64,000 nt of DNA, from contig JBMNIH010000005.1 in the NCBI GenBank assembly GCA_050950825.1, positions 86,688 to 150,687 of the forward strand. The letters are read 5' to 3'. Under the pieces are notes generated by a model. The model was given only the letters and a program-made list of their open reading frames with translations, made no database searches and was not told where the DNA came from. The DNA is from Clostridia bacterium. GTDB lineage: Bacteria; Bacillota; Clostridia; JAAYHZ01. Shown piece by piece: positions 1-5,524 of the stretch. How positions within the stretch are numbered: the first letter of the stretch is position 1; each line of letters begins with the position of its first letter. The translations under genes were made by a program, and so were the position numbers.

Positions 1-518
1 CCGGTATCGATATCGCCCGGCACTACGGCGATATATTCTTCCGGATAGAGTTTTTTGATGATGTCCTCCAAAACCTCGGAGGTTTTCAAGGACATCTCCG
101 ACGGCTTGATGACGGCACAGTTACCCGCACCGATAGCCCCGATCAAAGGAGCGATGGCAAGCTGAAAAGGATAATTCCAAGGGGATAAAATAAGCGCCGT
201 GCCGTAAGGGTCGGAGTACACGGTATTTACAGAACCGATCTGAAACCAAGATGACTTTACTCTTTTCGGTTTTGCCCAAGACCGAAGATTTTTTAAGAAA
301 AAGCGAATCTCCTCCAAGACATAGCCGATTTCGGTGGTATAGGCTTCGAAATCCGATTTATTTAAGTCTTTTTTCAAAGCATCCGTTATTTTGCTTTCGT
401 TTTCCTTGATGGATTCTTTTAAGTCTTGTAAGGCTTTTATCCGATACTCTATGTTCTTGGTCTTACCGGTTAAAAAGAAATCTTTTTGCTTTCGGACAAG
501 ATCGTGAGCATCCTTCAT
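1..518 (-). CDS. Aldehyde dehydrogenase (ALDH3-like), runs off the left edge of the window
   Basis: Hand translation from ATG at 518 (GGAGG RBS at 526-530): MKDAHDLVRKQKDFFLTGKTK...DPYGTALILSPWNYPFQLAIAPLIGAIGAGNCAVIKPSE, containing the ALDH PWNYP and KPSE motifs. Confidence 0.9.
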   Translation of the reverse strand, partial: MKDAHDLVRKQKDFFLTGKTKNIEYRIKALQDLKESIKENESKITDALKKDLNKSDFEAYTTEIGYVLEEIRFFLKNLRSWAKPKRVKSSWFQIGSVNTVYSDPYGTALILSPWNYPFQLAIAPLIGAIGAGNCAVIKPSEMSLKTSEVLEDIIKKLYPEEYIAVVPGDIDT

Positions 519-535
519 CTGCATTCCTCCTGACA

Positions 536-561
536 TAAAAAGGAGTCGCTCGTGACTCCTT
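536..561 (-). terminator. Intrinsic terminator closing the RiPP operon
   Basis: Minus strand reads AAGGAGTC-acgagc-GACTCCTT followed by a T run; lies between the peptidase stop (630) and the ALDH RBS. Confidence 0.65.
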
Positions 562-629
562 GATATTTTCCGTATTTTATCCGCTCCATAGCCGACGTAA
601 AGTTTTTCGGCGGCAACAAGCTTTCCCCT

Positions 630-1103
630 TTATTTTATCCTATGCTTCGAAAGCATGCAAATCCATTTGTAATATCGGCCTTTAAAAACTTGCTCCGTGT
701 TTTTCACAACAAGAAACCTTTTATGCATCTTTAAAGAAAGAAAGACAATCAAAATGCTTTTTAAGCCGTAGGAGACCTTCTGCTCCGTTCCGTCGTCCCT
801 GATTATTGTAACCACCCTTCCGAAGCAATCCTTCGGATCAACGCTTTCGACGGCTACGGCATGGTCGCCTTTTATATACCACATATCCTTTTTCATTCGA
901 ACGATTCGGTGGGTAAGAAGCCTTCCTTTTTGATCAAAGGCGGTCACGATATCCCCTATTCGATAGCTTTCCGCTTTTTCAAGAACCACTTGATCCCCGG
1001 AGGATATGATAGGTTCCATACTGACTCCCTTCACCGTGATGCGATTGTTGTTTTGTCTTAATTGTATTTCGGTCAGAGCTTTATACAGATTGGTTTGATC
1101 CAT
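630..1103 (-). CDS. S24/S26-family (signal-peptidase-like) serine peptidase, candidate RiPP leader peptidase
   Basis: Motifs GVSMEP (catalytic Ser), LTHRIV (His) and IKGD; no N-terminal transmembrane anchor; last gene of the PqqD/rSAM operon. Confidence 0.8.
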   Translation of the reverse strand: MDQTNLYKALTEIQLRQNNNRITVKGVSMEPIISSGDQVVLEKAESYRIGDIVTAFDQKGRLLTHRIVRMKKDMWYIKGDHAVAVESVDPKDCFGRVVTIIRDDGTEQKVSYGLKSILIVFLSLKMHKRFLVVKNTEQVFKGRYYKWICMLSKHRIK

Positions 1104-1914
1104 GGACGGTTCCTCTTAAAACCTCTTCTACATAATCCATACGGCTGTAGTTTAATTCATGCGTTCCGGCCTTTGCAAGCTCAATCAACAATTGGACGAA
1201 AGAAGGATCCGGTTTTTGGACGGTATATTGATTCTTCAAAAGCATTAAAAACCCTTCCTGTGACGAGAGCGGGCTTAAAGCTTGGATATCCTTTGTTCTT
1301 GCGATCTTGAATATTCCTGCCAATGAATACTCCGAGTTTTTATATGACGCGTATACGACCTTTCTCTTGATATCTCCGTACTCGAAAAACTCCCCTTCGA
1401 CGTCGATTCCGCAATTTGTTAAAACCTCCGCTCCGCCTTCTCTTAATTGGATCGGACGAGGAAAAGGAATGATTTTTTTATCTTTTTTACGTATAAGCGC
1501 CAAGTCGTCCGACAAATAGTCGAATCCCCGCTTGACCAAATAGGCGGTGAGGGTGGATTTTCCGGATCCCGTAGTTCCGGTTAGGATAAAGGCTTTGCCG
1601 GATAAACCGACTACGGCTCCGTGTATGGCAAGAATCTCCTCGTCTACGGTCGTGGATTCGAACAGAATGTTTTCTATGGCTTGCAAGGCATAGCCACGAG
1701 GGATTTTTATCGTGCTTCCTTGGCAAGTAAAAAGACCGATTTTTGCTTCGTAGGTAATCTCCACGGTCCGGTCTTCGGAGACAGTTTCAAGGCGCATCGG
1801 GTTTTGTATAAAGGGATTGTAGAAAGCATAGAGAATTCGGGTTAACGATTCATCGTCGGTATTCACAACAACAACGGGTTTTTGATAGGGGCGTTTGATT
1901 CGTATTTTATGCAT
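1081..1914 (-). CDS. HPr-kinase-related P-loop kinase (similar in type to lasso-peptide kinases)
   Basis: IHGAVV...ILTGTTGSGKSTL Walker A and LSDDLALI motif typical of the HprK C-terminal domain; overlaps both neighbours. Confidence 0.8.
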   Translation of the reverse strand: MHKIRIKRPYQKPVVVVNTDDESLTRILYAFYNPFIQNPMRLETVSEDRTVEITYEAKIGLFTCQGSTIKIPRGYALQAIENILFESTTVDEEILAIHGAVVGLSGKAFILTGTTGSGKSTLTAYLVKRGFDYLSDDLALIRKKDKKIIPFPRPIQLREGGAEVLTNCGIDVEGEFFEYGDIKRKVVYASYKNSEYSLAGIFKIARTKDIQALSPLSSQEGFLMLLKNQYTVQKPDPSFVQLLIELAKAGTHELNYSRMDYVEEVLRGTVHGSNQSV

Positions 1915-2938
1915 GTAGATCTTCCCTGCGCATAGTCAGTACGTTTTTTGCCACTTGTCTGGATATTTGCAGTTTTCGGAAATTGCAGTCCCCGTCATCG
2001 GCAAGATAATCCTTCGTAAGATGATATGCGGATGCGGCGCAGCCTCTTCCGCATAAGTTTTTGCTTATACATTTGTGGCATCCGTAGTCGCACTTTTGTC
2101 TTTCCGACAATAGCGATTGCAGCTCCTTCAGTTTTTCTTCCATGGAGTCGAAATCAAGCCGGTACAAGGAACCGACGGAAAATTCGGGTTCATACAAGTT
2201 TTGGCAAGGTTGAATGTCTCCGTTGGATTTAACGCAGATACTCAGCCGGTCTAAATTAATTATGGAGCAATTAAAAGTGGCGTAAGGTACGGTAGTCTTA
2301 ATCCCGTACTTTTCTTGAAGCTTCTCGATTTTTTCAATGACCTTCAGTTTTTCTTCGGGAGTCAGTTCGATTTCCCTCCAATACCGGTCCGCATGTCCCA
2401 TTTTCTCCGCAAATGCAAAGGAAGGCTTGCAATTGTTTTCAATTGCAAGCACAAAATACTCCTCAACTAAACTGAAATTAAGTCGAGAAACGGTCATTTT
2501 GATGATCGGAGAGACCTTAGGCTGAAAAGAAGACAAATTTCTCATTGTCTTCATGTAACTGCCTTTTTCCCGAACCCTTGCGTTAGTTTCGTCATCGATA
2601 CCGTCAATACTGAACTGTACGGAGAAACGATCATCCGTTTCCAGTAGACGATAAAAACGGTCGCATCGTACGGTGCCGTTTGTCACCACGAAGAAAGACA
2701 ATTCTTTGTGCTTTTCCATCACATCCAGAACCTGTCCCCACTGTCGGTGCAGCAACGGTTCGCCTCCGGAAATGTCAAAGATGGATAATCCGTATCTTTG
2801 ATGAAAAGCAACAAGAAACTTTTCAAGCTCATCGGCCGGAATTTCCTGCAGTTCCCTTTTTGAGCCGGATGCGTTGTAGCAATGTCGGCAATTCAGATTG
2901 CACCTATTCGTAATTTCCACATAGCAAGACCGTATCAT
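1907..2938 (-). CDS. Radical SAM/SPASM peptide maturase
   Basis: CNLNCRHC (CxxxCxxC), SGGEPLLH and a C-terminal SPASM motif (GDIQPC...CHKCISKNLCGRGC...DC). Confidence 0.93.
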   Translation of the reverse strand: MIRSCYVEITNRCNLNCRHCYNASGSKRELQEIPADELEKFLVAFHQRYGLSIFDISGGEPLLHRQWGQVLDVMEKHKELSFFVVTNGTVRCDRFYRLLETDDRFSVQFSIDGIDDETNARVREKGSYMKTMRNLSSFQPKVSPIIKMTVSRLNFSLVEEYFVLAIENNCKPSFAFAEKMGHADRYWREIELTPEEKLKVIEKIEKLQEKYGIKTTVPYATFNCSIINLDRLSICVKSNGDIQPCQNLYEPEFSVGSLYRLDFDSMEEKLKELQSLLSERQKCDYGCHKCISKNLCGRGCAASAYHLTKDYLADDGDCNFRKLQISRQVAKNVLTMRREDLHA

Positions 2939-3219
2939 CCGACTGTTTCTTTCTCCGCTTTTTTCAGTAAACCGTTCTCTACAAACCGGTTTACCAATTC
3001 CTTAATGTCATTTTGAATAACGCTGCGTTCACCTTCGTACTTTTCAAGCAGCATGTCCGTAGCTTCTTCAAGATCCCTTTCGGTCTCAAAGCAGTTCAAG
3101 ACATCCAAAGCTATACCGTCTAACACCAGGGTATTCCCCGTGCTGCCGTCAAAGTATACACAGCCTTCTCCGTCGTCTAAGGGCATTTCCTCATAGACGA
3201 TGCTCTTTATGAACCTCAT
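2935..3219 (-). CDS. PqqD-family RiPP recognition element (RRE)
   Basis: 94 aa; VYFDGSTGNTLVLDGIALDVL...LLEKYE...IQNDIKELVNRFVENGLL matches the PqqD/RRE pattern; ATGA overlaps with both neighbours. Confidence 0.88.
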   Translation of the reverse strand: MRFIKSIVYEEMPLDDGEGCVYFDGSTGNTLVLDGIALDVLNCFETERDLEEATDMLLEKYEGERSVIQNDIKELVNRFVENGLLKKAEKETVG

Positions 3220-3365
3220 AGAGCCATCCTACCTATGCGTATGAGATCACAAGCAACTCCATAGGTTGAGCATGCTCCGGAAACCACAACCTTATTGAGC
3301 TCATCCAACGTGATGACCTCCATTGTCGGTTTCTGCCACTGCTTCTTGATCGTTTCTTGTTTCAT
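3216..3365 (-). CDS. Putative RiPP precursor peptide, 49 aa: MKQETIKKQWQKPTMEVITLDELNKVVVSGACSTYGVACDLIRIGRMAL
   Basis: Not in the ORF track; hand-translated. AGGAGG RBS about 8 nt upstream of the ATG; its TGA overlaps the PqqD ATG; WxxP leader motif; two Cys in the C-terminal half. Confidence 0.88.
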   Translation of the reverse strand: MKQETIKKQWQKPTMEVITLDELNKVVVSGACSTYGVACDLIRIGRMAL

Positions 3366-3387
3366 TGTTCAATCCTCCTATCGATTA

Positions 3388-4449
3388 TTAGTGTATAATC
3401 TTTTTCAGTTGTCTTAAGGCAATATTGATTGAATCCGGTCGGATCTTGTAATAGGAGCGCTTGCCTTCGTTTCTTCTTTCCACCAATCCCGATTGGTACA
3501 AAATATCCAAATGGTGGGACAGGGAGGATAAGGGTAATCCCAATCGCTCCGCGATTTCACTGGCAAACAATTCCCCGTCTTTAATGGTTTTGATGATGCT
3601 TATTCGTGTTTCATCGGTAAAGGCTTTGAAGAACGTAATTTCATCCTCGTGAATATCCTGTACGACCTGCAAGCCTCTATCGTAATCAAATCCTAAATAT
3701 ACATTCAAAGTCCGTCTATACATTCGATATTGTATGGTATAGGGTATGAAAAATCCTACGGCAAGTCGAACCGTTGTAAATCGGCCTGATTTTACAAGGC
3801 TTGCATAGTTATCGGACATCTTCATAAGCCGGCTGTCGCCGTAGGCTTCAAATCTTTTTCCGACGGTTTCATAATATTCATCGATCAATTTTCGGTGGTT
3901 ATCGTACTCGATTTCCAACTCTCTTGCAAAGTCCGTCAATGATTTGACTATTTTTCGCTTCGTTCCTTCAGGGGATTCGATCAACGATAGCATGTTCCAT
4001 TTCAGGTCCGCATCCAAATTGATGCCGTCCAAAAACACCATTAACAGTTTCTTGTTTTCTAATAGGAATTGATAAAAGGAGTCGGGAAAATGATTCTTCG
4101 AATCATAAAAATCCAATAATTTTATTTGCAATTCATCGGTGTCGATATCGTTAAAAGCATTGATTAACTCCTCAATGGATTCACCGTTCACCAACGATTC
4201 CGCCATTAAATTAGGAAAAAAGGTCATTCCGTTATCACATGTGTGAAAAAAAAGGCGAATCAAAGGAAGGTCATTTTTTATGTATTCTCGTAAACGAGAA
4301 TACGCGGTTTTAACATTTCGCGGCACAGAGAGGTCATAATCGGTATAGATTTCATCAAGATTTTTGCACCGCGTTAACAGATTAAGAAGAGCAGTAAAAT
4401 CATAAATTTTACCCTTCTCCGGCTCGTACAAGTATGTTATGTCATTCAT
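3388..4449 (-). CDS. ArsR/SmtB-family transcriptional regulator with a large N-terminal domain
   Basis: C-terminal FKAFTDETRISII...ASEIAERLGLPLSSLSHHLDILYQSGLV winged HTH; ends 22 bp before the precursor start. Confidence 0.85.
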   Translation of the reverse strand: MNDITYLYEPEKGKIYDFTALLNLLTRCKNLDEIYTDYDLSVPRNVKTAYSRLREYIKNDLPLIRLFFHTCDNGMTFFPNLMAESLVNGESIEELINAFNDIDTDELQIKLLDFYDSKNHFPDSFYQFLLENKKLLMVFLDGINLDADLKWNMLSLIESPEGTKRKIVKSLTDFARELEIEYDNHRKLIDEYYETVGKRFEAYGDSRLMKMSDNYASLVKSGRFTTVRLAVGFFIPYTIQYRMYRRTLNVYLGFDYDRGLQVVQDIHEDEITFFKAFTDETRISIIKTIKDGELFASEIAERLGLPLSSLSHHLDILYQSGLVERRNEGKRSYYKIRPDSINIALRQLKKIIH

Positions 4450-4834
4450 TATATTACCTCAAAAATATTATCAATGATAATGGAAAACACGAACCAAAAC
4501 AGTTCGATCGGTTATCTGTCGTAATTTTTTCGTATAATTTTATATTTTTCTTTAGTAACGACCGATAAATTCATTAATATCGCCTAAATTGGTTGATATC
4601 CCCTAAAAATCTTCCTTTATTTTACCTCACATCGAAATTAATTATATCATTCCTTTGTTTAAATTCAATCACTTTATTACTAAAATCTTGATTTTTAGCA
4701 CAAATTTATTTTTAAAAATGTTAAATTTCTGCCTTCAAGCCTTATATATCCCCGTTACCACTACAGTTCCGAAGGGTTTTATGGTAAGATGGAAAAAATA
4801 ATTTCAACATCAAAGAACAGCGGAGATACCATAC

Positions 4835-5524
4835 ATGATCATGTACAAATACGAAACCCATGCTCACACATCGGAAATCAGCCTGTGCGGAAAAATCAGC
4901 GCCGCGGATTTGGTCAGGTTCTATAAACAACAAGGATACAAAGGCATATTCATAACCGACCATTTCATAACCGGCAACACAACGGTACCGAAGGATTTGC
5001 CTTGGAAAACACGCATCGATATGTACTGCAAGGGCTTTGAAAACGCATATGCGGAGGGAAAGCGTATCGGGATTGACGTCTTTTTCGGTTGGGAACACTC
5101 ATTTCAAGGAACGGACTTTTTGACCTACGGTTTGGACAAAGAATGGCTTTACGAACATCCGGAGCTGGAGGCAGCGGACCTGAATACATACAGCGACATT
5201 GTAAGGGCTAGCGGCGGTTTTGTGGTTCATGCCCATCCCTTTCGCGAAGCCGGCTATATCAGTATGATCCGTCTGCTTCCCCGTAAGGTGGATGCGGTGG
5301 AAACGGACAATTCATGCCGAACGGATTTTGAAAACTTTTTGGCCAATCAGTATGCCGAAAATTACGGCCTTTTGAAATTCGCCGGGTCCGATAACCACAG
5401 AGGGCCTCTTCCTCGCCTTGCGGGAATACAGGTGGCCGAGCCTTTAAAAACGGAAACGGATCCGGTTGATGCCATAAAATCCGGGAAATTTGAAATGTTC
5501 TCGCTTATCAACGACGGAAAATGA
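4835..5524 (+). CDS. PHP-domain phosphoesterase
   Basis: ETHAHT, ITDH, HAHP and GSDNH metal-binding motifs. Confidence 0.85.
   Translation: MIMYKYETHAHTSEISLCGKISAADLVRFYKQQGYKGIFITDHFITGNTTVPKDLPWKTRIDMYCKGFENAYAEGKRIGIDVFFGWEHSFQGTDFLTYGLDKEWLYEHPELEAADLNTYSDIVRASGGFVVHAHPFREAGYISMIRLLPRKVDAVETDNSCRTDFENFLANQYAENYGLLKFAGSDNHRGPLPRLAGIQVAEPLKTETDPVDAIKSGKFEMFSLINDGK

Follow-up and report, generated by a model that had tools for sequence, protein, structure and literature searches.

The second gene of a six-gene, minus-strand operon in the window (the whole 64,000-nucleotide stretch of DNA analysed here) encodes a 49-residue peptide which is almost certainly a genuine RiPP precursor, serving the pathway that its operon encodes. 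The operon, REG-A-B-rSAM-K-S, comprises an ArsR-type regulator (REG), the precursor, a discrete PqqD RRE, a radical-SAM/SPASM enzyme (rSAM), an HprK-like kinase and a SipW-like serine peptidase. In the reading that we favour and consider reasonably probable as a whole, the RRE would bind the leader, the kinase would act on Ser33, the rSAM would act on Cys39 and the peptidase would cut after Ala31; we infer every modification in this pathway and have observed none. In the direction of transcription, its features are:

4641..4668, minus strand: promoter-like TTGAAT-16-TATAAT (with TG) ahead of the regulator gene (consensus scan, 10/12, top score in 1..5000)
3388..4449, minus strand: REG, 353 aa: an N-terminal domain of ~255 aa, followed by an ArsR/SmtB winged HTH at the C-terminus; the stop lies 22 nt before the precursor ATG
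3374..3379, minus strand: Shine-Dalgarno AGGAGG, read from the sequence, with an 8-nt spacer to the precursor ATG
3216..3365, minus strand: precursor gene (49 aa + stop), with leader residues 1-31 at 3365..3273 and core residues 32-49 at 3272..3219
3327..3344, minus strand: leader motif K8-x-W10-x-x-P13, predicted RRE-binding strand (K8, W10 and P13 invariant in A2, our family alignment of 24 sequences)
3273..3281, minus strand: S29-G30-A31, where an AxA-type cut behind Ala31 is predicted (from family conservation)
3267..3269, minus strand: Ser33 (core position 2), predicted phospho-acceptor (invariant in A2; analogy to LppK on core Ser3)
3249..3251, minus strand: Cys39, predicted cross-link donor (invariant in A2)
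2935..3219, minus strand: discrete PqqD-family RRE, 94 aa (Pfam PqqD 40.1 bits, cut-off 23.4); its start overlaps the precursor stop
1907..2938, minus strand: radical SAM/SPASM enzyme, 343 aa, no N-terminal RRE domain (Pfam Radical_SAM 69.1 bits); its ATG overlaps the PqqD stop
1081..1914, minus strand: HprK-like kinase, 277 aa (HprK_rel_A 73.2 bits, cut-off 200; Pfam Hpr_kinase_C 31.2, cut-off 33.3)
630..1103, minus strand: predicted leader peptidase, a 157-aa serine peptidase resembling SipW/archaeal-type signal peptidases (Peptidase_S24 32.3 bits, cut-off 23.3)
540..561, minus strand: terminator-like hairpin between the peptidase and aldehyde dehydrogenase genes, an 8-bp stem then TTTAT (a consensus-scan pattern match only)

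The precursor, MKQETIKKQWQKPTMEVITLDELNKVVVSGACSTYGVACDLIRIGRMAL, is the exact translation of 3216..3365 on the minus strand, from the ATG at 3365..3363 to the TGA at 3218..3216, and its ORF appears in the open-reading-frame listing of the window. The original prediction had described a RiPP precursor with a strong AGGAGG ribosome-binding site and a stop coupled to the RRE start. Both details are confirmed: AGGAGG lies 8 nt before the ATG, and the precursor TGA shares ATGA with the start codon of the 94-aa PqqD gene (start 3219). Gene junctions in the operon are ATGA or short overlaps, apart from the 22 nt that follow REG. Contigs assembled from four metatranscriptome libraries cover ~489..4625, a span whose ends are not read as transcript ends, and one contig (996..3630) spans the kinase, rSAM, PqqD, precursor and REG 3' end. 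This is consistent with transcription, short of proof. The promoter-like site is a weak indication, because the scan of 1..5000 found 12 sites where 10.4 were expected.

REG passes the NCBIfam HTH_metalloreg cut-off (74.6 bits; cut-off 55) and also matches Pfam HTH_5 and HTH_20. When its whole-protein AF2 model (pLDDT 87.9) was compared with solved structures using Foldseek and VIA-align, only residues 262-353 matched ArsR proteins; for the N-terminal domain, the ESM Atlas pointed, below its threshold, to DUF5937 (score 0.87). In 12 of the 13 loci retrieved with the precursor profile, the gene immediately before the precursor is REG-like, and REG-like genes also precede the precursors of the related rSAM loci. 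REG probably controls the operon, and it might sense the peptide product.

Conservation of the ORF beside RRE genes had been proposed as a check, and homologues were indeed found. When 24,309 stop-to-stop ORFs were searched with a peptide HMM, 14 of 23 related rSAM loci proved to have a homologous small ORF (E values of 1e-5 to 1e-25, plus five weaker at 0.0001 to 0.036). In six of the other nine, a contig end truncates the locus or marks its start, and the remaining three are L018, L019 and L034; a regex search for HMM-missed precursors in ten loci (L018, L019, L020, L022, L027, L029, L034, L035, L038 and L039) gave no plausible candidate. Searching from the precursor instead, we found it in 11 of 401 genomes of the class, eight of which have the rSAM family at E<=1e-40; the three without it at that threshold are 72, 86 and 92% complete. 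The precursor's own genome has no second copy, the other five profile matches there having E >= 0.06. Six near-identical proteins occur in a 5.8-billion-protein collection, and the precursor profile retrieved 182 cluster representatives (E<=0.001) among 1.84 billion proteins. The precursor and its unusual enzyme set thus point to a large family of modified peptides in anaerobic Clostridia, not to a lasso peptide. No Pfam or NCBIfam model matches it, so current genome-mining tools probably miss it. Family statistics below refer to 173 unique sequences, 166 of them with an aligned core.

The family core reads X-Ser-x(2-6)-Cys-x5-Arg and has 10-18 residues, usually with a C-terminal Arg. Its invariant residues are Ser33 and Cys39, whereas Cys32, Tyr35 and Asp40 vary. 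The C-x6-C pair originally proposed (Cys32 with Cys39) must be replaced by Ser33 with Cys39, since position 32 is Cys in only 91/166. The Ser33 column holds Ser in 166/173 and Thr in 1/173. After the Ser, 150/166 cores have a single Cys and 3/166 have none; the Ser-to-Cys spacing ranges from 0 to 7 residues, whereas the distance between the Cys and the C-terminal Arg is constant. Position 35 is aromatic in 76 of the 91 sequences with Cys32 vs 5 of the 75 without it, i.e., Tyr35 is a subfamily feature.

The rSAM carries the CX3CX2C motif and the SPASM auxiliary-cluster cysteines (the Pfam scan listed no match to its SPASM model), and its invariant residues are C13/C17/C20, C224, G240, C245, C287, C290, C296, C300 and C318. 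It reaches no NCBIfam cut-off: MftC (96 bits) and PapB (83 bits) score best, and the scores for curated sactipeptide/ranthipeptide maturase families fall far short (PapB 82.7/340, StsB 76.3/625, SkfB 57.9/300 and AlbA 52.4/850, as bits/cut-off). Among solved enzymes, those nearest to it in sequence are SkfB (8.9e-13) and CteB (2e-6), both of which form thioethers. By fold (Foldseek), the order is CteB (6.5e-15), SkfB (1.3e-14), anSME (9.7e-14), SuiB (3.6e-13) and ChlB (5.9e-13). The rSAM would modify the core at Cys39, most probably by closing a single intramolecular thioether of the sactionine or ranthionine type in the Cys-x5-Arg tail, and we put the chance that Cys39 ends up in a thioether at about even. 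The type of reaction is not fixed by these comparisons, because the anSME, SuiB and ChlB fold matches have E values within two orders of those of CteB and SkfB.

The rSAM could carry out another SPASM-type reaction that leaves no thioether, with the RRE, kinase and peptidase acting as in the favoured pathway, though we regard this as considerably less likely. Options include anSME-like oxidation of Cys or Ser to formylglycine, a C-C or aromatic cross-link with Tyr35, epimerisation and a reaction in the C-terminal tail. Such a reaction would suit an enzyme that passes no maturase cut-off and scores 59-96 bits with MftC, ScmE, NirJ2, PapB and anSME alike; the close fold scores of anSME, SuiB and ChlB, the three Cys-free cores among 166 and the coupling of the position-35 aromatic to Cys32 fit it too. 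It is harder to reconcile with a single post-Ser Cys in 150/166 cores, always equally far from the C-terminal Arg and the only core residue kept besides Ser, and with the fact that the two best solved relatives, in both sequence and fold, are thioether synthases.

The HprK-like kinase occurs in 19 of the 23 rSAM loci (some of the others are cut by contig ends), and 15 homologues share H98, T115, G118-K119, T121, D136-D137, R158 and G160-G161, i.e., the P-loop, His and Asp-Asp positions. In PsmK, the D158A/D159A variant is inactive (PMC6993621). LppK phosphorylates core Ser3 and acts on Ser only, its S3T and S3Y variants being inactive (PMC13381572), and this specificity fits the Ser-to-Thr ratio of 166 to 1 among the 173 family sequences. 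By this analogy, Ser33 is probably phosphorylated: the kinase would act on core position 2, possibly several times, as LppK does on Ser3. A kinase target among Ser33, Thr34 and Tyr35 had been foreseen, and family conservation now narrows it to Ser33.

Two other uses of the kinase seem improbable to us. In the first, phospho-Ser33 would be eliminated to dehydroalanine and Cys39 would add to it in a lanthionine-like way, leaving the rSAM to a separate tailoring step. This would explain why Ser33 and Cys39 are the sole invariant core residues in A2, and class III/IV lanthipeptide synthetases do combine a kinase with a lyase (PMC4289311). However, the six operon proteins contain no lyase or cyclase domain, the HprK-like RiPP kinases characterised to date leave stable mono- or polyphosphates (PMC13381572; PMC6993621), and the Ser-Cys spacing is variable (0 to 7). 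In the second, of similarly low probability, the kinase would act on some other substrate, and what the peptidase releases would simply be a small sacti- or ranthipeptide. The HprK_rel_A match, which covers only the P-loop region (73 bits vs 200), would allow this, as would loci L018 and L019, which have PqqD, peptidase and rSAM genes with no kinase match. Against it stand the kinase's translational coupling within the operon and its presence in 19/23 loci, the invariant Ser at core position 2, and homologues which phosphorylate precursors in lasso and LPP clusters (PMC13381572; PMC6993621).

In the favoured pathway, the peptidase would come last: with the RRE presenting the leader, the SipW-like Ser/His enzyme would cut after the AxA-like S29-G30-A31. 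Its NCBIfam sigpep_I_arch score (42.4 bits) is below the cut-off of 51.85, and G26, S28, M29, P31, H65, R66, K78, G79, D80 and E86 are invariant across 16 homologues. In LppS, its LPP counterpart, S29/H68/D93 are catalytic and the RRE is required (PMC13381572); LPP cleavage also depends on phosphorylation. At the family junction, position -1 is Ala in 155/166 and Gly in 9/166, position -3 is A/V/S/L/I in 162/166, and position -2 is Gly in 20/166. A cut exactly after Ala31 is the likelier outcome by a modest margin; the AxA rule may not apply to this peptidase, because LppS is described as cutting after F-E-T (PMC13381572), not after AxA. A double-glycine leader, as first suggested, can be set aside. 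The window has G30-A31 here, yet -2 is Gly in only those 20/166 sequences, no operon gene encodes a C39 peptidase domain or an ABC exporter, and an AxA-like junction occurs together with a signal-peptidase-like enzyme. The product would be the 18-residue CSTYGVACDLIRIGRMAL with phosphate(s) and one cross-link; the calculated monoisotopic mass of this core before modification is 1940.963 Da.

Before any of this, the discrete PqqD RRE would bind the K-x-W-x-x-P strand of the leader, as the RREs of lasso B1 proteins and LppB do. The leader W is present in 167/173 unique sequences (two have Tyr instead) and the P in 172/173. The best solved relatives of the PqqD profile are the lasso B1 proteins TbiB1 (5v1u, 3e-8) and TfuB1 (6jx3, 3e-6), and some relatives have S24-PqqD fusion proteins. 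The likeness of KKxWxxP to paeninodin-type leaders, already remarked on in the original prediction, holds up: NCBIfam lasso_PadeA_fam matches precursor residues 7-19 at E 0.0016 (below cut-off), and WxxP is reported to be nearly invariant in such leaders (PMC13381572). Modelling of the RRE-leader complex, also proposed at the outset, gave an ipSAE of 0.38 (three runs, 0.37-0.39) vs 0.01 for the best control, with a partner pLDDT of at least 56 and runs agreeing in at least 96% of contacts. This passes a mark reached by 116/157 solved complexes and 2/215 mismatched pairs; at an ipSAE of 0.60 or under, however, the mark is reached by 18/157 solved complexes and both passing mismatches. The model is graded as weak support. 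The pass may also reflect memory, because similar lasso B1-leader complexes have been solved.

Of the whole system, the RRE and leader alone look lasso-derived from their sequences. A lasso peptide or degenerate lasso precursor, with Asp40 at ring position 9, is extremely improbable. The WxxP leader, an RRE closest to lasso B1 proteins and the Asp register obtained if the core starts at Cys32 point that way, but no lasso B2 protein (PF13471) was found in the operon or in the rest of the 97.1%-complete genome, and no Asn-synthetase-like macrolactam cyclase is among the six operon proteins. Asp or Glu follows Cys39 in only 29/150 sequences, so the ring register once suggested does not survive, and we reject the lasso reading of the precursor. 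The absence of the lasso Thr(-2), reported earlier, stands: position -2 is A, S or G in the family. The paeninodin/pseudomycoidin systems remain the closest lasso comparison, sharing a WxxP leader, a B1-type RRE and an HprK-like kinase which adds one to several phosphates to Ser, as well as an NTP-transferase (PsmN-like) gene that is found here in relatives of the window operon (PMC6993621; PMC13381572). Their phospho-acceptor is described as the C-terminal Ser, whereas the acceptor predicted here is internal, a Ser close to where the core begins; moreover, the operon has no macrolactam cyclase or B2 cysteine protease, and its leader peptidase is predicted to be of the serine type. A chance, non-genic reading frame is equally remote from the evidence: its length of just 49 aa would allow one, but it has an RBS and translational coupling, its leader/core pattern is kept across loci whose rSAMs are merely 37-54% identical, and it matches 182 database clusters.

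The nearest known system is that of the linear polyphosphorylated peptides (LPP), encoded by lppAKBSDN of Paenibacillus alginolyticus (Popov et al., Nat Commun 2026, PMC13381572). Both systems combine a discrete PqqD RRE, an HprK-like kinase and a SipW/archaeal-type leader peptidase, and both have a Ser near the core N-terminus (Ser3 in LppA, core position 2 here). The LPP core genes include an NTP transferase (PF14907) and an MsbA-like exporter; a Pfam search found neither among our six operon proteins, but related loci carry an NTP_transf_5 protein and MsbA-like exporters. The PF14907 gene nearest to the operon is ~10 kb away and shares 26% identity with its cluster-linked counterpart in G002. 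The LPP leader motif is YxxPxVLxHQxIxFETxxS, whereas the precursor family has WxxP and lacks the rest, and the F-E-T junction of LPP contrasts with the AxA-like one here. LPP precursors are variable (35-200 residues), unlike the 10-18-residue cores here, in which one Cys is conserved and a C-terminal Arg is usual, and LPP hosts are Bacilli, not anaerobic Clostridia. Finally, LPP products remain linear, their pathway having no enzyme for cross-linking, whereas our operon contains a radical-SAM/SPASM gene, with the cross-link itself a prediction from sequence; a term search of the LPP main text gave no hit for 'radical', 'rSAM' or 'SPASM', and 'Radical_SAM' occurs only as a supplementary-table column name (PMC13381572). 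Relative to the published LPP description, then, what is new is the added radical-SAM enzyme, WxxP in place of YxxP and the Cys-bearing mini-core.

Sactipeptide and ranthipeptide systems (SkfB/SKF, CteB/SCIFF and PapB/freyrasin) resemble ours in that the rSAM has all the SPASM cysteines and the core bears Cys; the single Cys cross-link of SKF is like the one predicted here. They differ in that our rSAM has no fused RRE, scores far below curated maturase cut-offs and is paired with a kinase and a signal-peptidase-like protease. The SynChlorMet and GeoRSP cassettes also combine an HprK-related protein, PqqD and an rSAM/SPASM enzyme (ScmC/ScmE/ScmF; GeoRSP PqqD/rSAM; HprK-related kinase B), with all scores far below cut-off (ScmE 91/400, ScmC 18/125, GeoRSP rSAM 59/400 and GeoRSP PqqD 17/100, as bits/cut-off). 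To our knowledge these families are purely computational definitions, and our literature search found no paper on them. Nor did it find, outside subscription journals, a published RiPP cluster with an rSAM, an HprK-like kinase and a signal-peptidase-like protease. As far as we know, it was the 2026 LPP paper that first brought HprK-type kinases and leader peptidases of the signal-peptidase-like kind into the RiPP field, and it left the end product of that pathway and its role to be established.

In the precursor family, LPP-type machinery and a radical-SAM enzyme meet on a tiny, well-defined core with two invariant residues. Tentatively, and with less confidence than the pathway itself, it may be the founding example of an undescribed RiPP class in anaerobic Clostridia, with at least 182 clusters, whose cores would carry (poly)phospho-Ser and an rSAM cross-link and be released by a signal-peptidase-like enzyme. 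In such a class, Ser and Cys may even be coupled, with phospho-Ser needed for or joining the rSAM step; we know of no rSAM with a phospho-Ser-coupled reaction at Cys. The system should be easy to study, because it has one 18-residue product, clear mutants (S33A and C39A) and clear mass shifts. It could reveal the order of phosphorylation and radical chemistry on one RRE-bound peptide, as well as the role of a WxxP RRE outside lasso pathways.

The original prediction had proposed a hidden precursor gene, and an ORF of 49 codons does lie exactly at 3216..3365 on the minus strand. Read from the sequence, it opens with an ATG at 3365, and 8 nt separate this codon from an AGGAGG at 3379..3374 (-). 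Its TGA (3218..3216) overlaps the ATG of the PqqD gene (3219) as ATGA (-), and a second ATGA joins the PqqD stop to the start of the radical-SAM (rSAM) gene. Overlaps of 8 nt and 23 nt link the rSAM to the kinase gene and the kinase to the peptidase gene, respectively. The regulator gene (REG) stops 22 nt short of the ATG of the precursor. No exporter gene is among the six operon genes in the window, which are laid out as follows:

4668..4641, minus strand: promoter-like site (pattern match only), upstream edge of the six genes
4449..3388, minus strand: REG, N-terminal domain of ~255 residues plus ArsR/SmtB HTH
3365..3216, minus strand: precursor, from ORF and family conservation
3219..2935, minus strand: discrete PqqD RRE, from Pfam/NCBIfam searches of the operon proteins
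2938..1907, minus strand: radical-SAM/SPASM enzyme, from the same searches
1914..1081, minus strand: HprK-like kinase, from the same searches
1103..630, minus strand: S24/S26 peptidase, best NCBIfam matches archaeal-type signal peptidase I and SipW
561..540, minus strand: terminator-like hairpin (pattern match only), downstream edge of the six genes

Only five columns are invariant in an alignment of 24 precursors: K8, W10, P13, S33 and C39. Run against 1.84 billion proteins, the profile of this alignment matched, at E≤0.001, 182 representatives of clusters built at 50% identity, and the 150 listed are 31–78 residues long, bar one outlier of 2878 residues (P0031; 8 stretches matching the profile, E 3.3e-8), which was left out of the statistics. 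Merging duplicates among 154 database proteins and the 24 alignment rows gave 173 unique sequences, in which the leader W is present in 167 and the P in 172. The anchor column holds Ser in 166/173 and Thr in one; three of the others are apparently frameshifted or truncated, and three read AAAS. Core position 1, just before this Ser, is variable (Cys 91, Arg 35, Trp 16, others 24; n=166), whereas a single Cys is present after the Ser in 150/166 (none in 3/166), mostly after a gap of 2–6 residues. The post-Cys tail has six residues in 73/150, Cys+6 is Arg in 82/122, and the final residue is Arg in 103/166. Judged from these sequences, it is Ser33 and Cys39 that are invariant in the core family-wide, rather than the C-x6-C pair put forward as the key feature. 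An aromatic residue stands at Ser+2 in 76 of the 91 sequences with Cys at core position 1 vs 5 of the 75 without, so the first Cys is coupled with the aromatic, which places the window peptide in a ‘C-S-x-Y’ subfamily.

Among 41 genomes, close rSAM homologues occur in two relatives, G002 (two paralogous clusters) and G016, and a small ORF homologous to the precursor accompanies every one of these clusters. The second G002 cluster (L014 3644..4496, G002:C234) looks degenerate, with only open remnants downstream of its rSAM gene (61 aa of kinase C-terminus and 42 aa of peptidase N-terminus) before the contig end at 4496. When one genome was scanned for each species, 23 loci with an rSAM 37–53% identical came up, all in gut and digester MAGs of Clostridia/Oscillospiraceae type; three of them repeat the G002 and G016 contigs. 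Applied to all 24,309 stop-to-stop ORFs of these loci, a peptide HMM yielded 21 unique precursors, spread over 14 of the 23. Conservation of the ORF beside RRE/rSAM orthologues was the check that the original prediction had set itself, and it is borne out. The HMM found none in the other nine: a contig end cuts near the cluster in L020, L022, L029, L035 and L038, L027 begins at a contig end, and contig ends do not explain the absence in L018, L019 and L034. Across loci, the rSAM gene is accompanied by PqqD, kinase, peptidase and REG genes, the peptidase being stand-alone or fused to PqqD or to an NTP_transf_5 domain. Because these loci had been found via the rSAM, a converse search was started from the precursor, which is present in 11 of 401 genomes of the class. 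The rSAM family was found at E≤1e-40 in eight of the 11 and not found at that threshold in three (72, 86 and 92% complete), and all these association counts are based on fragmentary MAG contigs.

A REG-like gene directly precedes the precursor in 12 of 13 loci of the precursor-profile search (among L105-L121), the exception being L109. Loci with two precursors have one REG paralogue for each (L015 2961..3815 and 1404..2801), the former without HTH or Pfam match. Whole-model searches of the REG N-terminal domain against solved structures gave no match, and an ESM Atlas lead to DUF5937 scored 0.87, below the trust level. Loci of an ‘AAA[R/W]S’ precursor subtype (L036 7157..12821; L021, L031, L033, L034, L037) have a PqqD-peptidase fusion, with two MsbA-like ABC exporters each in L036 and L037. 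All have an ACP-FkbH fusion (FkbH domain 209 bits) adjoining a 345-aa NTP_transf_5 protein, which hints at further decoration of the predicted phospho-Ser.

The rSAM enzyme has CX3CX2C and all of the SPASM cysteines, both unchanged across 12 homologues, and lacks an N-terminal RRE; it reached no curated NCBIfam cut-off (best MftC, 96 bits against 265). Kept across 15 kinase homologues are His98, the P-loop (T115..G118-K119-x-T121), Asp136-Asp137 and Arg158, and across 16 peptidase homologues Gly26-x-Ser28-Met29-x-Pro31, His65-Arg66 and Lys78-Gly79-Asp80. Kinase residues 8-13 (window 1875..1892) form a YxxP-like string, R-P-Y-Q-K-P; its P-[YF]-[QR] motif is common to 9/15 homologues, only two of these with the final Pro. 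The RRE profile finds its best solved relatives in the lasso B1 proteins TbiB1 (3e-8) and TfuB1 (3e-6), followed by the 2026 entries 9x90 (‘lasso peptide biosynthesis PqqD family chaperone’, 7e-5) and 9x8z (‘PqqD family protein’, 0.01).

Two known systems resemble this one. The main text of PMC13381572 (Nat Commun 2026) defines linear polyphosphorylated peptides (LPP), whose clusters encode LppS (a peptidase of the SipW type), LppB (a discrete RRE), LppK (an HprK-like kinase) and LppN (an NTP transferase), together with an exporter resembling MsbA. As described there, LppK places several phosphates on core Ser3 (S3A, S3T and S3Y are not phosphorylated), and LppS, whose catalytic residues are S29/H68/D93, cleaves off the leader only if it is presented by LppB, the unphosphorylated precursor being a poor substrate. 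The leader motif is YxxP in LPP vs WxxP in paeninodin-type lasso peptides, and the RREs tell them apart. In the lasso system, according to PMC6993621, the kinase PsmK puts one to three phosphates onto a Ser (inactivated by D158A/D159A) and the NTP-transferase-like PsmN adds a hexose to the phosphorylated peptide. Compared with these descriptions, our operon has the RRE-kinase-peptidase trio in common with LPP and the WxxP leader in common with paeninodins, but also has an rSAM enzyme and a mini-core that bears a Cys. The main text of PMC13381572 uses none of the words radical, rSAM, SPASM and Clostridia.

Two further readings of the precursor fare less well. A lasso ring register is not supported, since a search of the window's own genome (97% complete) did not reveal a lasso B2 protease. 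Nor is a double-glycine leader: the residue at Ser-2 is Ala in 155/166 (Gly in 9/166) and that at Ser-4 is A/V/S/L/I in 162/166, preferences which together fit the signal-peptidase (-3,-1) rule. The original prediction is right in part: the ORF is a RiPP precursor, its leader is paeninodin-like, and a kinase target lies close by. There is no support for its C-x6-C as the key feature, its double-glycine leader or its lasso ring register.

The genome's only NTP_transf_5 (PF14907) gene lies outside the window, ~10 kb to the left of its start (L103 7886..9514, G000:C5:75885-77513). Its 542-aa product is 26% identical to a cluster-linked 511-aa protein of G002, and it may represent the operon's LppN/PsmN-like partner in a displaced position. 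Just outside the window's left edge, a triad of CotH kinase, DUF4956 and VTC (polyphosphate-polymerase-type domain) genes (L103 14251..17734, G000:C5:82250-85733) adjoins the aldehyde dehydrogenase gene that borders the operon, a curious neighbour for a putative polyphosphorylated-peptide cluster.

We propose that the RRE would bind the leader, the kinase would phosphorylate Ser33, the rSAM enzyme would act at Cys39 and the peptidase would cut after Ala31. For the first step, ESMFold2 with both alignments scored the RRE-precursor complex at ipSAE 0.38 (runs 0.37–0.39), against 0.01 for the highest-scoring control out of three, on a scale where 116/157 solved complexes and 2/215 mismatches reach the mark, but only 18/157 solved complexes, with both passing mismatches, do so in the ≤0.60 bin. 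The partner had a pLDDT of 56 or more, and the runs shared at least 96% of contacts. This model lends weak support to RRE-leader binding. Similar complexes have been solved, so the pass may reflect memory. For Cys39, thioether formation is favoured because Cys is the only reactive residue that is conserved and because the nearest solved enzymes, SkfB and CteB, are thioether synthases (by sequence, SkfB 8.9e-13 and CteB 2e-6; by fold, CteB 6.5e-15 and SkfB 1.3e-14, with an rSAM model of pLDDT 89.4). However, anSME, SuiB and ChlB score almost as high, so the reaction may be of another type. The Cys-x5-Arg tail is fixed and the Ser-Cys gap variable, which suggests that a ring, if any, would close towards the C-terminus.

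At least 63% of sampled words of 600..4700 are present in each of twenty public runs, mostly anaerobic-digester, biogas and bioreactor metagenomes; six are metatranscriptome libraries. Contigs from four RNA libraries cover ~489..4625, and one (run X10, 996..3630) bridges the kinase, rSAM, PqqD and precursor genes and the end of REG, which is consistent with transcription, although DNA can occur in RNA libraries. Of this contig's 36 differences from the window, 26 fall inside 3198..3391 (the precursor gene and first PqqD codons), while the remaining operon differs by ~0.4%, so the precursor looks like a hot spot of strain (allelic) variation.

Eleven precursors (the window's and 10 diverse ones) had no Pfam or NCBIfam match at or above cut-off, the sole match being a sub-threshold one of the window leader to lasso_PadeA_fam. 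We predict from sequence that the system joins LPP-like machinery to radical-SAM chemistry, acting on a precursor family that is unannotated yet sizeable, with 182 clusters.
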